The translations under genes were made by a program, and so were the position numbers. Of a DNA stretch of 64,000 nt, positions 9,976 to 61,118 are shown one piece after another. The DNA lies in assembly GCF_044324785.1 (NCBI RefSeq), contig NZ_CP172127.1; one strand, given 5' to 3'. The stretch comes from Escherichia coli (lineage in GTDB: Bacteria > Pseudomonadota > Gammaproteobacteria > Enterobacterales > Enterobacteriaceae). The notes beneath the pieces are model-generated. The model was not told the DNA's origin. It did no database searches and saw nothing but the letters and a program-made list of their open reading frames with translations. Position 1 is the first letter of the stretch. Each line of letters starts with the position of its first letter.

Positions 9976-10755
9976 AACCTGTTCCTTATTCTGTGAACTT
10001 CAGGTGACATTAAAGCTTTACTCCTAATGGAGAAACGACGCAATCCCAACTCAGTCAAACAGGTAAATATTAGTCTGATTATTAGTAAAGACAATTAATC
10101 AATCACTCTCGGTGATCATATGATTTCAACTGTAATTATAAGAAAATAATGTACTGATTCTCCATATTAAACAAGTGGTTAATATATGTAAAACATTTTA
10201 TTAACATTAAGTTGATTGTTGCCTTTCTTTGTATTTAATTAGTTTGTTGTGCGGTAAGTGTCTGTTTAAAAATAGCTTATCTGGTATTGCATTAAAGCAA
10301 TTATTTATAGCAGATGATTATTTACGGTGAGTTATTTTAACTGTGCGCAACATCCCATTTCGATTATTCCTGTTTCATTTTTGCTTGCTAGAGTCGCGAA
10401 AAACTTTTTAACAGATTGAAATACACCCAAAACAAAAGTATGACTTATACATTTATGTTAAGTAATTGAGCGTTTTGTGTGATCTGTATCACACATTATT
10501 GAAAATCGCAGCCCCCCTCCGTTGTATGTGAGTGTAGTGACGAGTAAAGTTGCGTCGATTTAGGAAAAATCTTAGATAAGTGTAAAGAACCCCTTCTATT
10601 TGTAAGGACTTATTGAATCCCAAAAAGGGGCTCTGCCTGTTGCAGCTTATCGCAACTATTCTAATGCTAATTATTTTTTACCGGGGCTTCCCGGCGACAT
10701 CACGGGGTGCGGTGAGACCGCATAAAAATAAAGTTGGTTATTCTGGGTGGGAATA

Positions 10756-16117: not shown

Positions 16118-16145
16118 TTCTCCTGATTTCCTCAATTGAAATGAA

Positions 16146-16172
16146 CCCGATGATCTGCACATCGGGTTTTTT
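16146..16172 (+). terminator. Rho-independent terminator after cheW
   Basis: Stem cccgatg / catcggg followed by TTTTTT. Confidence 0.75.
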
Positions 16173-16203
16173 ATTTCAATTTAGCGGTAGGTGGCATCAG
16201 CAA

Positions 16204-16230
16204 TAAAGTTTCCCCCCTCCTTGCCGATAA
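16204..16230 (+). promoter_or_regulatory. Sigma28 (FliA) promoter of the tar-tap-cheRBYZ operon: TAAAGTTT-N11-GCCGATAA
   Basis: Exact consensus match, about 30 bp upstream of the tar start. Confidence 0.8.
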
Positions 16231-26376: not shown

Positions 26377-26412
26377 TAAAAAAGCCGATGTCTGCCATGA
26401 CATCGGCTTTTG
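26377..26412. terminator. Bidirectional rho-independent terminator between convergent flhE and argS
   Basis: A-tract, stem gccgatgtc / gacatcggc, T-tract. Confidence 0.75.
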
Positions 26413-26425
26413 CCGTATAACGCGA

Positions 26426-28945: not shown

Positions 28946-29701
<756 letters not shown>

Positions 29702-29747
29702 TTTTTACCGTTGCATCATGTCGCCCAATATGATGCTTGCTCGTACC

Positions 29748-29781
29748 AGGCCCCTGCAATTTCAACAGGGGCCTTTTTTTA
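29748..29781 (+). terminator. Rho-independent terminator after cutC
   Basis: Stem aggcccctg / caggggcct followed by TTTTTTT. Confidence 0.8.
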
Positions 29782-33692: not shown

Positions 33693-33791
33693 GCCTGATG
33701 CGCTATGCTTATAAGGCCTACATAGTCCCTGCAATATATTGAATTAGCAAGATTTTGTAGGCCGGATAAGGCGTTCACGCCGCATCCGGCA
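33693..33791. repeat. REP/BIME element between convergent torZ and cmoB
   Basis: gtaggccggataaggcgttcacgccgcatccggca is a near-consensus REP; a second degenerate unit lies upstream. Confidence 0.7.
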
Positions 33792-42173: not shown

Positions 42174-42193
42174 CGCTGGATATCTATCCAGCA
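42174..42193. promoter_or_regulatory. LexA (SOS) box upstream of ruvAB: CTGG-N8-CCAG core
   Basis: cgctggatatctatccagca; palindromic CTG-N10-CAG pattern 50 bp upstream of ruvA. Confidence 0.7.
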
Positions 42194-42242
42194 TTTTTTT
42201 ATCATACAGCATTATCTTTGATTCATTACGCAGGAGCGTCAT

Positions 42243-56162: not shown

Positions 56163-57341
56163 TTAAGCTTGTACTTTTATCTGTGCTGCGGCGTGCTTTG
56201 CGCGCTCAATCGCTTCATCAACACTCTCTGCAGTAGCCAGTGCCACCCCCAGACGACGGCTGCCATCAATTTCCGGCTTACCAAATAAACGAATCTGTAG
56301 GCCTGCGCCTACGGCATTCTGCACATTATCAAACGTGACATTCTGACTGGTCAGTTGTGGCAGGATAACGGCAGAAGCTGCAGGACCATACTGACGGATC
56401 CCGCCAACCGGAAGTCCGAGGAAGGCACGTACATGCAGGGCAAACTCCGAGAGATCCTGAGAAATTAACGTCACCATCCCGGTATCATGTGGGCGAGGGG
56501 AGACCTCACTGAAAATCACCTCATCACCACAGACAAACAGCTCGACACCAAACAGACCATAACCGCCCAGTGCCAGCACCACTTTACGGGCAATCTCTTG
56601 CGCACGCTCCAGAGCAAGCGGGCTCATTTGCTGTGGTTGCCAGGATTCACGGTAGTCGCCATCTTCCTGGCGATGACCTACCGGTGCACAGAAATGGACG
56701 CCATCCACCGCGCTGACGGTTAGCAGGGTAATTTCGAAGTCAAACTTAACGACGCCTTCAACAATTACGCGGCCCGCTCCGGCGCGACCGCCTTGCTGAG
56801 CGTACTCCCATGCCTGAGCAAGTTGCTCTGCAGAGCGAATAAACGTCTGCCCCTTGCCGGAGGAACTCATCACCGGTTTAACAATACAGGGGTAGCCAAT
56901 GGCGGCAACCGCCTCGCGGAAAAGGTTTTCGCTATCGGCAAAACGATAAGTGGAAGTGGGCAGCTGCAGCTCTTCTGCCGCCAGGCGACGAATACCCTCG
57001 CGATTCATCGTTAATTTCGTTGCGCGAGCGCAGGGGACAACATTCAGCCCTTCCTCTTCAAGTTGGATCAGCATATCGGTGGCAATAGCTTCGATCTCCG
57101 GCATGATATAATGTGGTTTTTCCAGTTCAACCACACGGCGTAATGCATCACCATCAAGCATATTAATGACATGGGAGCGATGCGCGACATGCATGGCTGG
57201 TGCGTCGGCATAGCGATCAACGGCAATCACTTCTACGCCGAGACGCTGACACTCGATTGCCACTTCTTTACCCAGTTCACCGGAGCCTAATAACATCACG
57301 CGAGTTGCTGCCGGACGCAGCGCAGTGCCTAATAACGTCAT
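56163..57341 (-). CDS. purT: Formate-dependent phosphoribosylglycinamide formyltransferase PurT
   Basis: ORF track 392 aa; ATP-grasp. Confidence 0.95.
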
Positions 57342-57378
57342 AACGAATATCCCCTGATTAATTCCGCGCGCAGTATAA

Positions 57379-57394
57379 ACGAAAACGTTTGCGC
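57379..57394. promoter_or_regulatory. PurR operator (PUR box) upstream of purT
   Basis: acgaaaacgtttgcgc matches the ACGCAAACGTTTTCGT-type palindrome. Confidence 0.7.
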
Positions 57395-57437
57395 GTGTCT
57401 TTATTGCTGATGTTGATTTCCCAACCGAAAAGAAATA

Positions 57438-57457
57438 TACTGTATAAAATCACAGTT
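57438..57457. promoter_or_regulatory. LexA (SOS) box upstream of yebG: CTGT-N8-ACAG
   Basis: tactgtataaaatcacagtt, 18 bp upstream of the yebG start. Confidence 0.8.
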
Positions 57458-57474
57458 ATTATGAGAGGCTGCAA

Positions 57475-57765
57475 ATGGCGGTTGAAGTTAAATACGTAGT
57501 CATTCGTGAGGGCGAAGAGAAAATGTCGTTTACCAGCAAAAAGGAAGCCGATGCTTATGACAAAATGCTTGATACGGCGGATCTGCTTGACACCTGGCTG
57601 ACAAATTCTCCAGTGCAAATGGAAGACGAGCAACGTGAAGCCCTTTCGCTATGGCTGGCAGAACAAAAAGATGTGCTGAGCACCATTCTGAAAACCGGCA
57701 AATTACCGTCCCCACAGGTCGTCGGTGCTGAATCCGAAGAGGAAGATGCCTCACACGCGGCCTGA
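57475..57765 (+). CDS. yebG: DNA damage-inducible protein YebG
   Basis: ORF track 96 aa. Confidence 0.92.
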   Translation: MAVEVKYVVIREGEEKMSFTSKKEADAYDKMLDTADLLDTWLTNSPVQMEDEQREALSLWLAEQKDVLSTILKTGKLPSPQVVGAESEEEDASHAA

Positions 57766-57783
57766 AGCAACTTGCGCTCCTGA

Positions 57784-58188
<405 letters not shown>

Positions 58189-58514
58189 TGGCCTCTGATA
58201 ATTCGATTGACCGTCGGCGGATGCGGCGCGAGTGCCTGGTCCGCCCTACAAGGCACCTCAATCGGAGGCCTGAGAAGACGCAACAGCGTCGCATCGGGCA
58301 ATCAGCATCAAACAATGCCACTCAAAACGTCAAATTACTTTCACCTAAAATACCCTTATCACCTGATATACAGTGAACACCTTACCTGGCGCGAATTTCT
58401 TTGAATAACGGCCTGCCGACCCGCTTATTTGCGCATCTTTTGTCTCGATATACATTTTCTGACATCCTCATCCGCTATGCTACAGGCACTAAAAATGGTT
58501 ATTGAGGAGCAAAT

Positions 58515-59174
58515 ATGGCTAACTGGTTAAATCAACTGCAATCCCTGCTTGGGCAAAGCAGTTCTTCTACCTCCTCGTCTGCGGATCAGGGATTGGGCAA
58601 ACTTTTAGTGCCTGGCGCATTAGGCGGACTGGCTGGGCTGCTGGTCGCAAATAAATCAGCACGTAAACTTCTTACGAAATATGGCACCAACGCGTTGCTG
58701 GTTGGCGGCGGAGCGGTAGCGGGTACGGTGCTGTGGAATAAATACAAAGATAAAATTCGCGCGGCGCATCAGGACGAACCGCAGTTTGGCGTGCAGAGTA
58801 CGCCGCTGGATGAGCGTACGAAACGTTTGATCCTTGCGCTGGTCTTTGCCGCTAAAAGTGATGGTCATATTGATGCCAAAGAACGTGCGGCAATCGACCA
58901 GCAATTGCGTGAAGCCGGCGTGGAAGAGCAGGGGCGTGTACTCATTGAGCAGGCAATCGAACAACCGCTGGATCCACAACGCCTGGCTACCGGGGTCCGC
59001 AATGAAGAAGAGGCGTTGGAAATCTATTTCCTGAGCTGCGCGGCTATTGATATTGACCATTTTATGGAACGCAGTTACCTGAATGCACTGGGTGACGCGC
59101 TGAAAATCCCGCAGGATGTTCGTGAAGGCATTGAACGCGATCTCGAACAGCAAAAACGCACTTTGGCGGAATAA
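58515..59174 (+). CDS. yebE: DUF533-family inner membrane protein YebE
   Basis: ORF track 219 aa. Confidence 0.9.
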
Positions 59175-59280: not shown

Positions 59281-59500
59281 CCATTACCTGTCATCATGTG
59301 ACTGCTCCCCGCCCTGTCGGGCGAGGCTTCCCACTTCTTAAGCCGCAACCGTCTGTGTGACGGATTTACGCTGGCCTCCATGGGCAGAAACGACGAGTCC
59401 CGCCGCTTGTAATTCCAGTATGCCCTTGCGTTTGATGTTGAGCGCCGCGTTGATATCGCGGTCATGTTCAACTCCACACTCTGGACACTGCCAGATGCGC
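59281..59500 (-). ncRNA. Predicted TnpB guide RNA (omegaRNA / right-end RNA): scaffold overlapping the tnpB 3' end and right-end hairpin, guide from adjacent flank
   Basis: Inferred from the established architecture of TnpB systems (omegaRNA encoded at the tnpB 3' end through the IS right end); not directly visible as a gene; boundaries are approximate. Confidence 0.3.
59307..59326. repeat. Subterminal imperfect hairpin at the tnpB-proximal IS end (ccccgccc tgtc gggcgagg)
   Basis: 5-bp GC stem + mismatch + 2 bp; same motif and orientation as the hairpin at the other end. Confidence 0.7.
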
Positions 59501-60507
59501 TTATGTAATGGCATCTCCGACATTTTGTGACCGCAGCAGTGGCAGGTCTTCGAACTGGCGAACCATTGATCCAGTTTCACCAGATGCACACCTTTCTCTG
59601 TTGCTTTGTATTCCAGTTTTGTGATGAATCCAGACCATCCAGCATCGCCTATCGCACGAGCCAGATGGTGATTTTTCATCATATTTGCCGTTTTCAATGT
59701 CTCGACAATTACCGCTTGGTTTTCGTCAACAATTGCGCGAGATAACTTGTGCTGGAAATCGGCACGGGCACTAGCTACCCGTTCGTGAACGGCTGCAAGT
59801 TGTATTCTGGCTTTGCGCCTGTTTGCGCTCCCTTTTTTCTTACGGGACAGTGCTTTCTGCTTCCGGCGCAGGTTGCGACTTGCATTGATTAGGTGGCGGG
59901 GACTGGCAATTTTATTGCCGTCCGATTTGATGACAAAATGCGCCAGCCCCATATCCAGCCCTGTCACATTTGATATCAGTGCGGGCTTTGCCGGCGCTTC
60001 CATCCCGTCGTCACAGAGTAACGACGCGTAGTATTTCCCGGTTGCGCTGCGGCTCAACGTGATACTTTTCAGCATTCCCGTAATTTCACGATGTAAACGC
60101 GCTTCAATCGGCAAGATTTTCGGTATTTTTATCGCACCATCAAGGACTTTTATGCCAACACAATGATAGCTCGATTGTCTGCCGTGTTTACTTTTAAAGG
60201 TTGGTTTACCTGCTTTCAGTTTCGGATTGAAAAAGTTAGAAAAAGCCACGTCGAGGTTAATTACCGCCTGCTGCAACGCAATAGAATCATATTCTTTAAG
60301 CCATCCATACCGGCGGGATTTCTTCGCCACTGCAAGCAGTGGTTTGAGGTCTTTACGCGGGTTTAAATTTACGCGGTGCCGCTGGTAAGAATGTTTCTTG
60401 ATATGCAGAGCTTTGTTGTACGCAAAACGCACTGCACCGAACTGGGCGTTGATAAATTCAGCCTGTTCTGGTGTCGGGTAGATGCGTACTTTTGTTGCTC
60501 TTAACAT
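59338..60507 (-). CDS. tnpB: TnpB (IS605 OrfB-family RNA-guided endonuclease; RuvC-like + zinc finger)
   Basis: ORF track 389 aa; N-terminus MLRATKVRIYPTPEQ is classic TnpB; RuvC-I D in GLDMGL, RuvC-II E in VIVETL, zinc finger CHCCGH...CPECG, RuvC-III DRDINAALNI; ATG start. Confidence 0.92.
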   Translation of the reverse strand: MLRATKVRIYPTPEQAEFINAQFGAVRFAYNKALHIKKHSYQRHRVNLNPRKDLKPLLAVAKKSRRYGWLKEYDSIALQQAVINLDVAFSNFFNPKLKAGKPTFKSKHGRQSSYHCVGIKVLDGAIKIPKILPIEARLHREITGMLKSITLSRSATGKYYASLLCDDGMEAPAKPALISNVTGLDMGLAHFVIKSDGNKIASPRHLINASRNLRRKQKALSRKKKGSANRRKARIQLAAVHERVASARADFQHKLSRAIVDENQAVIVETLKTANMMKNHHLARAIGDAGWSGFITKLEYKATEKGVHLVKLDQWFASSKTCHCCGHKMSEMPLHKRIWQCPECGVEHDRDINAALNIKRKGILELQAAGLVVSAHGGQRKSVTQTVAA

Positions 60508-60529
60508 AATCAGCGCTCATTGATATAAT
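60501..60529 (+). promoter_or_regulatory. Putative sigma70 promoter for tnpA (-35 TTAACA at 60501..60506, 17-nt spacer, extended -10 TGaTATAAT at 60521..60529)
   Basis: Consensus -10 TATAAT with upstream TG; followed by SD aggtgg at 60549..60554 and a TTG start at 60564. Confidence 0.45.
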
Positions 60530-60535
60530 GCTTTT

Positions 60536-60563
60536 ATTTTAACACTTTAGGTGGATATATCAA
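60536..60563 (-). promoter_or_regulatory. Putative sigma70 promoter for tnpB (-35 TTGATA at 60558..60563, 16-nt spacer, -10 TAAAAT at 60536..60541, minus strand)
   Basis: Hexamers read from sequence; no experimental support. Confidence 0.4.
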
Positions 60564-60989
60564 TTGAGTAATCATGATGATTTACTGGCGGGATTTCTCC
60601 GCAAACGACACAGTGTCAGTAAGCTGGTTGTGCACCTTATTTTTACGACAAAGTATCGACGCAAACTATTCGACAGTCAGATGATCGCTCAGTTGCGTGA
60701 GGCTTTTGGCTCCGCTGCGGCAAAGCTTGAATGCGAAATTATTGAGATGGACGGGGAGCCAGACCATGTACACCTGCTGGTTGCCTACCCGCCAAAACTG
60801 GCGGTCAGTGTGATGGTCAATAATTTAAAATCGGTATCATCACGTTTGCTACGCCAGCAGAACGCGCATTTACGTATGCAGAGTAAAACGGGGCTTTTGT
60901 GGTCGAGATCGTACTTTGTCTGTAGCACCGGAGAGGCAACGATTGAAACGCTCAGAGCCTACGTTCAGAGTCAGTCAACACCTGATTGA
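60564..60989 (+). CDS. tnpA: TnpA (IS200-type Y1 HUH single-strand transposase)
   Basis: ORF track 141 aa; HUH motif HVHLL; C-terminal catalytic Tyr region SRSYFVCSTG; conserved TTKYRR; probable TTG start preceded by AGGTGG. Confidence 0.9.
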   Translation: MSNHDDLLAGFLRKRHSVSKLVVHLIFTTKYRRKLFDSQMIAQLREAFGSAAAKLECEIIEMDGEPDHVHLLVAYPPKLAVSVMVNNLKSVSSRLLRQQNAHLRMQSKTGLLWSRSYFVCSTGEATIETLRAYVQSQSTPD

Positions 60990-60994
60990 TCTTT

Positions 60995-61011
60995 AAAGCC
61001 CTGCGGGCTTT
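60995..61011 (+). terminator. Rho-independent terminator after tnpA (aaagccc tgc gggcttt + T)
   Basis: 7-bp stem, 3-nt loop, T-run; read from sequence. Confidence 0.6.
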
Positions 61012-61022
61012 TCGCCTTATAT

Positions 61023-61043
61023 CCCCGCCCGCATTGGGCGAGG
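61023..61043. repeat. Subterminal imperfect hairpin at the tnpA-proximal IS end (ccccgccc gcatt gggcgagg)
   Basis: Same stem sequence and mismatch position as the hairpin at 59307..59326. Confidence 0.7.
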
Positions 61044-61118
61044 GTTTACGGCGTTTTTCGCTAAGCAATGACTACCCTGTTTCGCTTGCATCTCCGGTGA
61101 GTTTTGCCACCCTTATAA

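Follow-up and report, generated by a model that had tools for sequence, protein, structure and literature searches.

PurR and LexA operators in the divergent purT-yebG spacer, and a LexA operator upstream of ruvAB, in an Escherichia coli chromosome segment

The PurR operator of purT and the LexA operator of yebG, together with their regulation, are already known for E. coli K-12 and Salmonella. In K-12, ChIP-chip revealed a PurR peak with its motif at purT both with and without adenine, and purT was found to be a direct target of PurR repression that is derepressed when purR is deleted (Cho et al. 2011, PMC3159470); at 14 of the 32 PurR-regulated promoters the motif was situated between the -10 and -35 elements (PMC3159470). 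Sort-Seq has been carried out on both promoters of the K-12 purT-yebG spacer (Belliveau et al. 2018, PMC6003448), which identified at purT a repressor site between -35 and -10 that appeared with adenine and was lost in a purR deletion, and on which PurR was pulled down, and at yebG a LexA site and an RNA polymerase site with induction by mitomycin C, the figure title speaking of 'directional regulatory features'. UV induction of yebG has also been observed in K-12, where yebF depends fully and yebE partly on LexA (Thomassen et al. 2010, PMC3009722), indicating that the yebG box controls more than yebG. The Salmonella yebG has one SOS box 17 bp from the ATG, as in the sequence described below, and is induced 41-fold (PMC8072944), and a 2019 review of the SOS response includes yebG and ruvAB among the genes with known SOS boxes (PMC6590174). 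We found no literature on yebG and purT as a 'divergent' pair, although the region is treated explicitly in PMC6003448. The regulation by adenine and by mitomycin C that a first-pass annotation of the present DNA had proposed for study has therefore already been measured on the K-12 purT-yebG region (PMC6003448; PMC3159470).

The window, by which we mean the whole 64-kb stretch of DNA analysed, is an E. coli-type chromosome segment that is collinear with K-12 at about 98% identity; by alignment, it maps to 1,925,985-1,989,729 of K-12 MG1655 in reversed orientation. Of 5426 complete E. coli genomes, 5425 contain the 2.2-kb purT-yebG stretch at 95-99% identity, and their RefSeq annotation gives the genes the same names. 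The genes at this locus are as follows.

56163..57341, minus strand: purT, formate-dependent GAR transformylase, 392 aa (open reading frame; NCBIfam equivalog NF006766, 655 bits; E. coli annotation)
57475..57765, plus strand: yebG, 96 aa (open reading frame; NCBIfam equivalog YebG, 206 bits)
57820..58188, plus strand: yebF (open reading frame; YebF equivalog; K-12 annotation)
58515..59174, plus strand: yebE (open reading frame; K-12 annotation)
57475..59174, plus strand: yebG-yebF-yebE, located 3' of the LexA-controlled promoter

Neighbouring products were named by NCBIfam equivalogs as Eda, YebF and a TnpB. As purT starts with an ATG at 57341 (minus strand) and yebG with one at 57475 (plus strand), the divergent spacer extends from 57342 to 57474, exactly the 133 bp that the first-pass annotation had reported. 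It is identical to that of K-12 at 131 of 133 bases (98.5%), the two single-base differences being at 57394 and at 57421, the latter of which falls in the yebG promoter spacer and leaves the LexA box unchanged. Spacers 100% identical to that of the window were found in some E. coli genomes.

Other features were noticed elsewhere in the window. Between yebE and ptrB, a 1763-bp insertion relative to K-12 (59298-61060) was recognized as an IS200/IS605-family element, with tnpB and tnpA as listed below. At 26384-26422, 39 bp between argS and flhE replace about 770 bp of K-12 (1,961,799-1,962,568; yecV, yecT), and the hairpin-like sequence AAAAAGCCGATGTC...GACATCGGCTTTT is found around this position. 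The window lacks the IS1 copy (IS1H) that K-12 MG1655 carries upstream of flhDC, and the alignment blocks join directly at 10450-10457. Three Rfam matches above the gathering threshold, to MicL, C0465 and ES036/CssrF, have no relation to the purT-yebG operators.

59338-60507, minus strand: tnpB, 389 aa (RNA-guided TnpB family, 342 bits)
60564-60989, plus strand: tnpA, divergent from tnpB (IS200 transposase, 142 bits)
29473-29780, plus strand: MicL sRNA (Rfam, 368 bits)
16137-16214, minus strand: C0465 (Rfam, 98 bits)
33714-33755, minus strand: ES036/CssrF (Rfam, 48 bits)

Candidate operators were scored with symmetrised, leave-one-out log-odds matrices, the PurR matrix being built from 27 sites (the 28 in Table 1 of PMC3159470 with purT removed) and the LexA matrix from 16 sites (the 18 boxes 5' of UV-induced genes in Table 4 of PMC3009722 with yebG and ruvA removed). 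Weight matrices were used because a search of the window for the ideal 20-mer TACTGTATATATATACAGTA with up to 3 mismatches gave no match and thereby missed the yebG box, which differs from the ideal at 5 positions. The bare CTGT-N8-ACAG core matched 2 times in the window versus 0.53 expected and is thus unspecific alone, and allowing 3 mismatches or fewer to the ideal PUR palindrome gave 1 match versus 0.56 expected, which is likewise uninformative. With the matrices, scores of 21.26 bits for the purT PUR box, 21.36 bits for the yebG LexA box and 19.30 bits for the ruvA LexA box were obtained, for which 0.0018, 0.0026 and 0.011 matches, respectively, are expected per 64-kb window. These three boxes were the top matrix matches in the 64 kb with a lead of at least 7 bits, and the next-best matches were at chance level, namely 13.86 bits (0.44 expected) for PurR, inside tar by coordinate mapping, and 12.26 bits (0.51 expected) for LexA. 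All three scores are in the range seen for published functional sites: the purT box ranks 6th among the 28 published PurR sites scored, level with purHD, and the yebG box 10th among the 18 of the published LexA set. The PurR and LexA matrix scan that had been put forward as a check on the first-pass annotation thus returned high scores, not low ones.

A consensus promoter scan revealed exactly two promoter-like sites in the spacer, one per gene, which represent matches to the consensus and not mapped starts. Together with the two operators, the elements are arranged in the following order.

57372..57377, minus strand: purT -10 hexamer TATACT (promoter scan, consensus match; 0.98 column identity in 58 species)
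57379..57394, unstranded: PurR operator (PUR box) ACGAAAACGTTTGCGC (sequence read; 21.26 bits), within the 18 bp that separate the -35 and -10 hexamers of purT
57396..57401, minus strand: purT -35 hexamer AAGACA (promoter scan, consensus match; 0.84 column identity)
57413..57418, plus strand: yebG -35 hexamer TTGATT (promoter scan, consensus match)
57436..57441, plus strand: yebG -10 hexamer TATACT (promoter scan, consensus match; 0.97 column identity)
57438..57457, unstranded: LexA operator (SOS box) TACTGTATAAAATCACAGTT (sequence read; 21.36 bits), 17 bp 5' of the yebG ATG

The -35 hexamers of purT and yebG are 11 bp apart and face away from each other, i.e., the two promoters stand back to back. 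Every coordinate in the first-pass annotation agreed with our reading of the sequence. Its statement that the two boxes are 44 bp apart is right as the step from 57394 to 57438, but 43 bp separate the box edges, and the distance from centre to centre is 61 bp.

The PUR box, located 37 bp from the purT ATG, is a 16-bp imperfect palindrome like ACGNAAACGTTTGCNT, with a central CG and 2 mismatches to the ideal; the palindrome previously proposed for purT at this position is therefore upheld, albeit as an imperfect one, in view of its high matrix score and its position in the purT promoter. By the promoter scan, it is placed to block the promoter of a purine gene, and Sort-Seq in K-12 positioned the -10 and -35 elements around the purT PurR site in the same manner (PMC6003448). 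The last base of the box (57394, position 16) is C in the window and T in K-12, which costs 2.5 bits (from 23.8 to 21.3) and reduces the symmetry from 7 to 6 of the 8 pairs; it is the only local operator difference. Among the 28 published PurR sites, 21 have T at position 16. The K-12 purT box, which ends in ...GCGT, equals the ChIP-chip motif ACGAAAACGTTTGCGT, whereas the box in the window is the identical 16-mer to the listed purHD operator ACGAAAACGTTTGCGC (PMC3159470 Table 1). Both alleles are common in relatives: C occurs in the GTDB E. coli reference, E. albertii and several Klebsiella, and T in E. whittamii, Citrobacter and Kosakonia.

The LexA box of yebG has its CTGT-N8-ACAG core at 57440-57455, with an AT-rich centre, inside the 20-bp site. 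The yebG hexamers are separated by 17 bp, and the box shares its first 4 bases with the -10-like TATACT, itself a consensus match. The high matrix score and this location in the yebG promoter bear out the earlier assignment of an SOS box to yebG, and the same sequence is given for yebG in Table 4 of PMC3009722. As to the register of the promoter, the yebG RNA polymerase site has been placed 9 bp downstream of its position in an older computational annotation (PMC6003448). The TTGA, the 17-bp spacer and the TATACT kept out to Erwinia favour the register TTGATT/TATACT, as far as can be judged from sequence; the LexA box overlaps the polymerase site in either of the two registers, which are 9 bp apart. 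It was also noticed that the centre of the box (57450-57451) varies in Escherichia, being ...AAAATCACAG in the window and K-12 (21.4 bits), ...AAAAATACAG in locus L002 (26.8 bits) and ...AAAATTACAG in loci L003-L005 (23.7 bits). In Salmonella, a comparable single-base polymorphism in the yebG box influences how large the yebG-ON subpopulation is (PMC8072944).

The second SOS box that had been pointed out upstream of ruvAB was found at the position claimed.

42174..42193, unstranded: LexA operator of ruvAB, CGCTGGATATCTATCCAGCA (19.30 bits), 49 bp 5' of the ruvA GTG (42243, RuvA equivalog)

Its sequence is the same as that in Table 4 of PMC3009722. It likewise has an AT-rich centre inside a 20-bp site, its arms are CTGG and CCAG, a tolerated variant shared with cho, and it overlaps a -35-like TGGATA, again a consensus match. 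Several further observations concern the immediate surroundings of this box. It doubles as a hairpin with a 7-bp stem, GCTGGAT-ATCT-ATCCAGC, followed by ATTTTTTTAT (42175-42201), which was terminator-like in a scan and has, as RNA, a folding energy of -10.6 kcal/mol (z = -5.5). Coordinate mapping from K-12 places this hairpin about 70 bp 3' of yobI, a small gene on the same strand, for which it might also serve as terminator. Adjoining the box and overlapping a -10-like TATCAT is a weak LexA-like sequence, CATTTTTTTATCATACAGCA, at 42192-42211, with a score of 8.0 bits, which is at chance level (3.3 expected). A second possible SOS box is said to have been discussed in early ruv papers.

To follow these elements across species, one genome per species was searched with YebG as the query, and in the resulting 80 loci, from Escherichia to Yersinia, purT was located and the spacer was scanned with the same matrices. 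Of these loci, 58 have the compact divergent purT-yebG layout; they range from Escherichia to members of Erwinia and Pantoea, and their spacers measure 128-141 bp, except for one of 261 bp in a Klebsiella. In all 58, the position of the PUR box is kept, the best PurR site scoring 18.8-23.8 bits at a distance of 35-43 bp to the purT ATG; the best LexA site scored 17.4-29.8 bits at 14-19 bp from the yebG ATG. Over these species, mean column identity to the window reached 0.94 in the PurR box, 0.996 in the CTGT and ACAG arms and 0.97-0.98 in the two -10 hexamers, as opposed to 0.475 in the remaining spacer; the TTGA of the yebG -35 hexamer is kept out to Erwinia and Pantoea. The distance between the two boxes in the compact loci is usually 42-45 bp (range, 41-55 bp), with 51-55 bp in four loci (E. 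whittamii, Superficieibacter). The Klebsiella with the longest spacer is K. spallanzanii (L048), in which about 126 bp are present in excess of the usual length of about 135 bp, and both boxes are intact at 170 bp from each other.

A LexA box of 17.4-29.8 bits is conserved 5' of yebG, 14-38 bp from the ATG, in 79 of the 80 loci, the exception being Yersinia nurmii (L054), with a best LexA site of 7.9 bits. In 16 loci of Yersinia, Serratia and Edaphovirga, purT and yebG are separated by approximately 1.6-1.8 kb and the boxes by 1548-1759 bp (among them L053, L055, L056, L058-L061, L065-L068, L071, L075, L078 and L081); in these, the PurR box still adjoins purT (20-24 bits) and the LexA box still adjoins yebG (18-29 bits). 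In the two loci examined for the intervening DNA, L065 and L078 (one Serratia, one Yersinia pestis), it contains a gene for a 460-aa protein in the same orientation as yebG, and the Y. pestis protein (L078) is a DbpA RNA helicase equivalog (783 bits). In the other six loci (L054, L072-L074, L077 and L079), purT was not found within 2 kb upstream of yebG. Since each box keeps to its own gene whatever the box spacing, from 41 bp to 1.7 kb over about 80 species, these results suggest that the boxes are independent modules and not parts of a coupled switch.

Taken together, the assignments of the PurR box to purT and of the two LexA boxes to yebG and ruvAB are supported, and it is very probable that the spacer holds two independent, back-to-back promoters under simple repression, with a separate SOS promoter at ruvAB. 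The present analysis contributes the sequences, the scores, the placement relative to consensus hexamers and the conservation, and the binding and regulation come from published K-12 work on identical or near-identical sequence; we infer that binding and regulation are the same in this strain and that the modules do not communicate. By this model, each of two independent sigma-70 promoters would have one repressor operator at which polymerase is blocked. On the purT side, read leftward, the PurR box would fill the spacer between AAGACA and TATACT, and when purines are plentiful, PurR with its corepressor hypoxanthine or guanine would exclude polymerase. On the side of yebG, yebF and yebE, read rightward, the LexA box would overlap the -10 hexamer and the likely transcription start, so that a LexA dimer would block initiation; upon DNA damage, RecA-stimulated self-cleavage of LexA would lift the block at yebG. 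The ruvAB box (42174-42193) would operate by the same LexA mechanism at its separate promoter.

The proximity of the two operators raises the question of whether they form an integrated switch, in which PurR affects yebG, or LexA or yebG transcription affects purT, and purine supply is thereby linked to the damage response. Such an arrangement would be in keeping with the compact layout, with boxes usually 42-45 bp apart in Enterobacteriaceae and Erwiniaceae, with the mere 11 bp between the -35 hexamers, and with the location of the PurR box at about -54 to -69 relative to the inferred start of yebG, near the reach of the polymerase alpha subunits. We consider it very improbable, however, since the spacing of the boxes varies up to the 170 bp of K. 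spallanzanii, both boxes are retained where dbpA splits purT from yebG in Yersinia and Serratia, and conservation is low between the promoter elements; moreover, Sort-Seq reported solely directional, gene-specific features (PMC6003448), and the main text of the study on the PurR regulon makes no mention of yebG (PMC3159470). A milder form, in which the neighbouring promoter is slightly adjusted either by PurR occupying its site some 60 bp 5' of the yebG start or by divergent yebG transcription after LexA cleavage, has an equally slim chance of being correct; at the position just mentioned, a small effect of the bound PurR box on yebG is at most conceivable. If so, a faint link between purine status and yebG would exist in Enterobacteriaceae and Erwiniaceae and would have been lost in the examined Yersinia and Serratia species with dbpA. 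The phrase 'packed side by side' in the first-pass annotation is accordingly adequate as a description of the layout, but the evidence points to two independent modules and not to an integrated purine and DNA-damage switch.

Short degenerate consensus sequences can be matched by accident, and the counts for the bare core and for the PUR palindrome might suggest that at least one of the three boxes is a functionless match. The odds of this appear negligible, as the full matrices predict only 0.002-0.01 such matches per window, with the gap of at least 7 bits to the next match, the sites lie in promoters of known regulon members, the purT and yebG boxes are near-invariant in 58 species, and published, experimentally supported sites are matched exactly or bar one base. 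Chance and cross-talk were therefore rejected as the main explanations on account of matrix scores, conservation and variable box spacing. That one base, the C at 57394, could make repression of purT somewhat weaker than in K-12, to judge from the score. A weakening strong enough to matter, leaving purT partly constitutive, would accord with the prevalence of T in the published sites and K-12 and with the loss in score and symmetry, but is unlikely, because the remaining 21.3 bits still rank 6th among 28, the same 16-mer is the operator of purHD, and the C allele is found in the GTDB E. coli reference, E. albertii, several Klebsiella and others. Its wide occurrence in relatives suggests a tolerated variant.

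Two points of wider bearing emerge: real operators can be called correctly from raw sequence, and two operators lying side by side in one spacer are not necessarily coupled in function, as each box tracks its own gene over about 80 species.

Compared with the described systems, the locus has the same genes, 133-bp spacer, LexA box and promoter hexamers as the K-12 purT-yebG region (PMC6003448, PMC3159470). PurR operators situated between -35 and -10, e.g., those of purHD and cvpA-purF, are likewise 16-bp imperfect palindromes with a central CG; unlike these, the PUR box in the window is dedicated to one gene, namely purT, which is a formate-dependent alternative to purN. With the gammaproteobacterial SOS boxes (consensus TACTG(TA)5CAGTA; recA, sulA, umuDC, ruvAB), the yebG box shares the CTGT-N8-ACAG core, the AT-rich centre and the overlap with the promoter, and it shows no structural difference from them.
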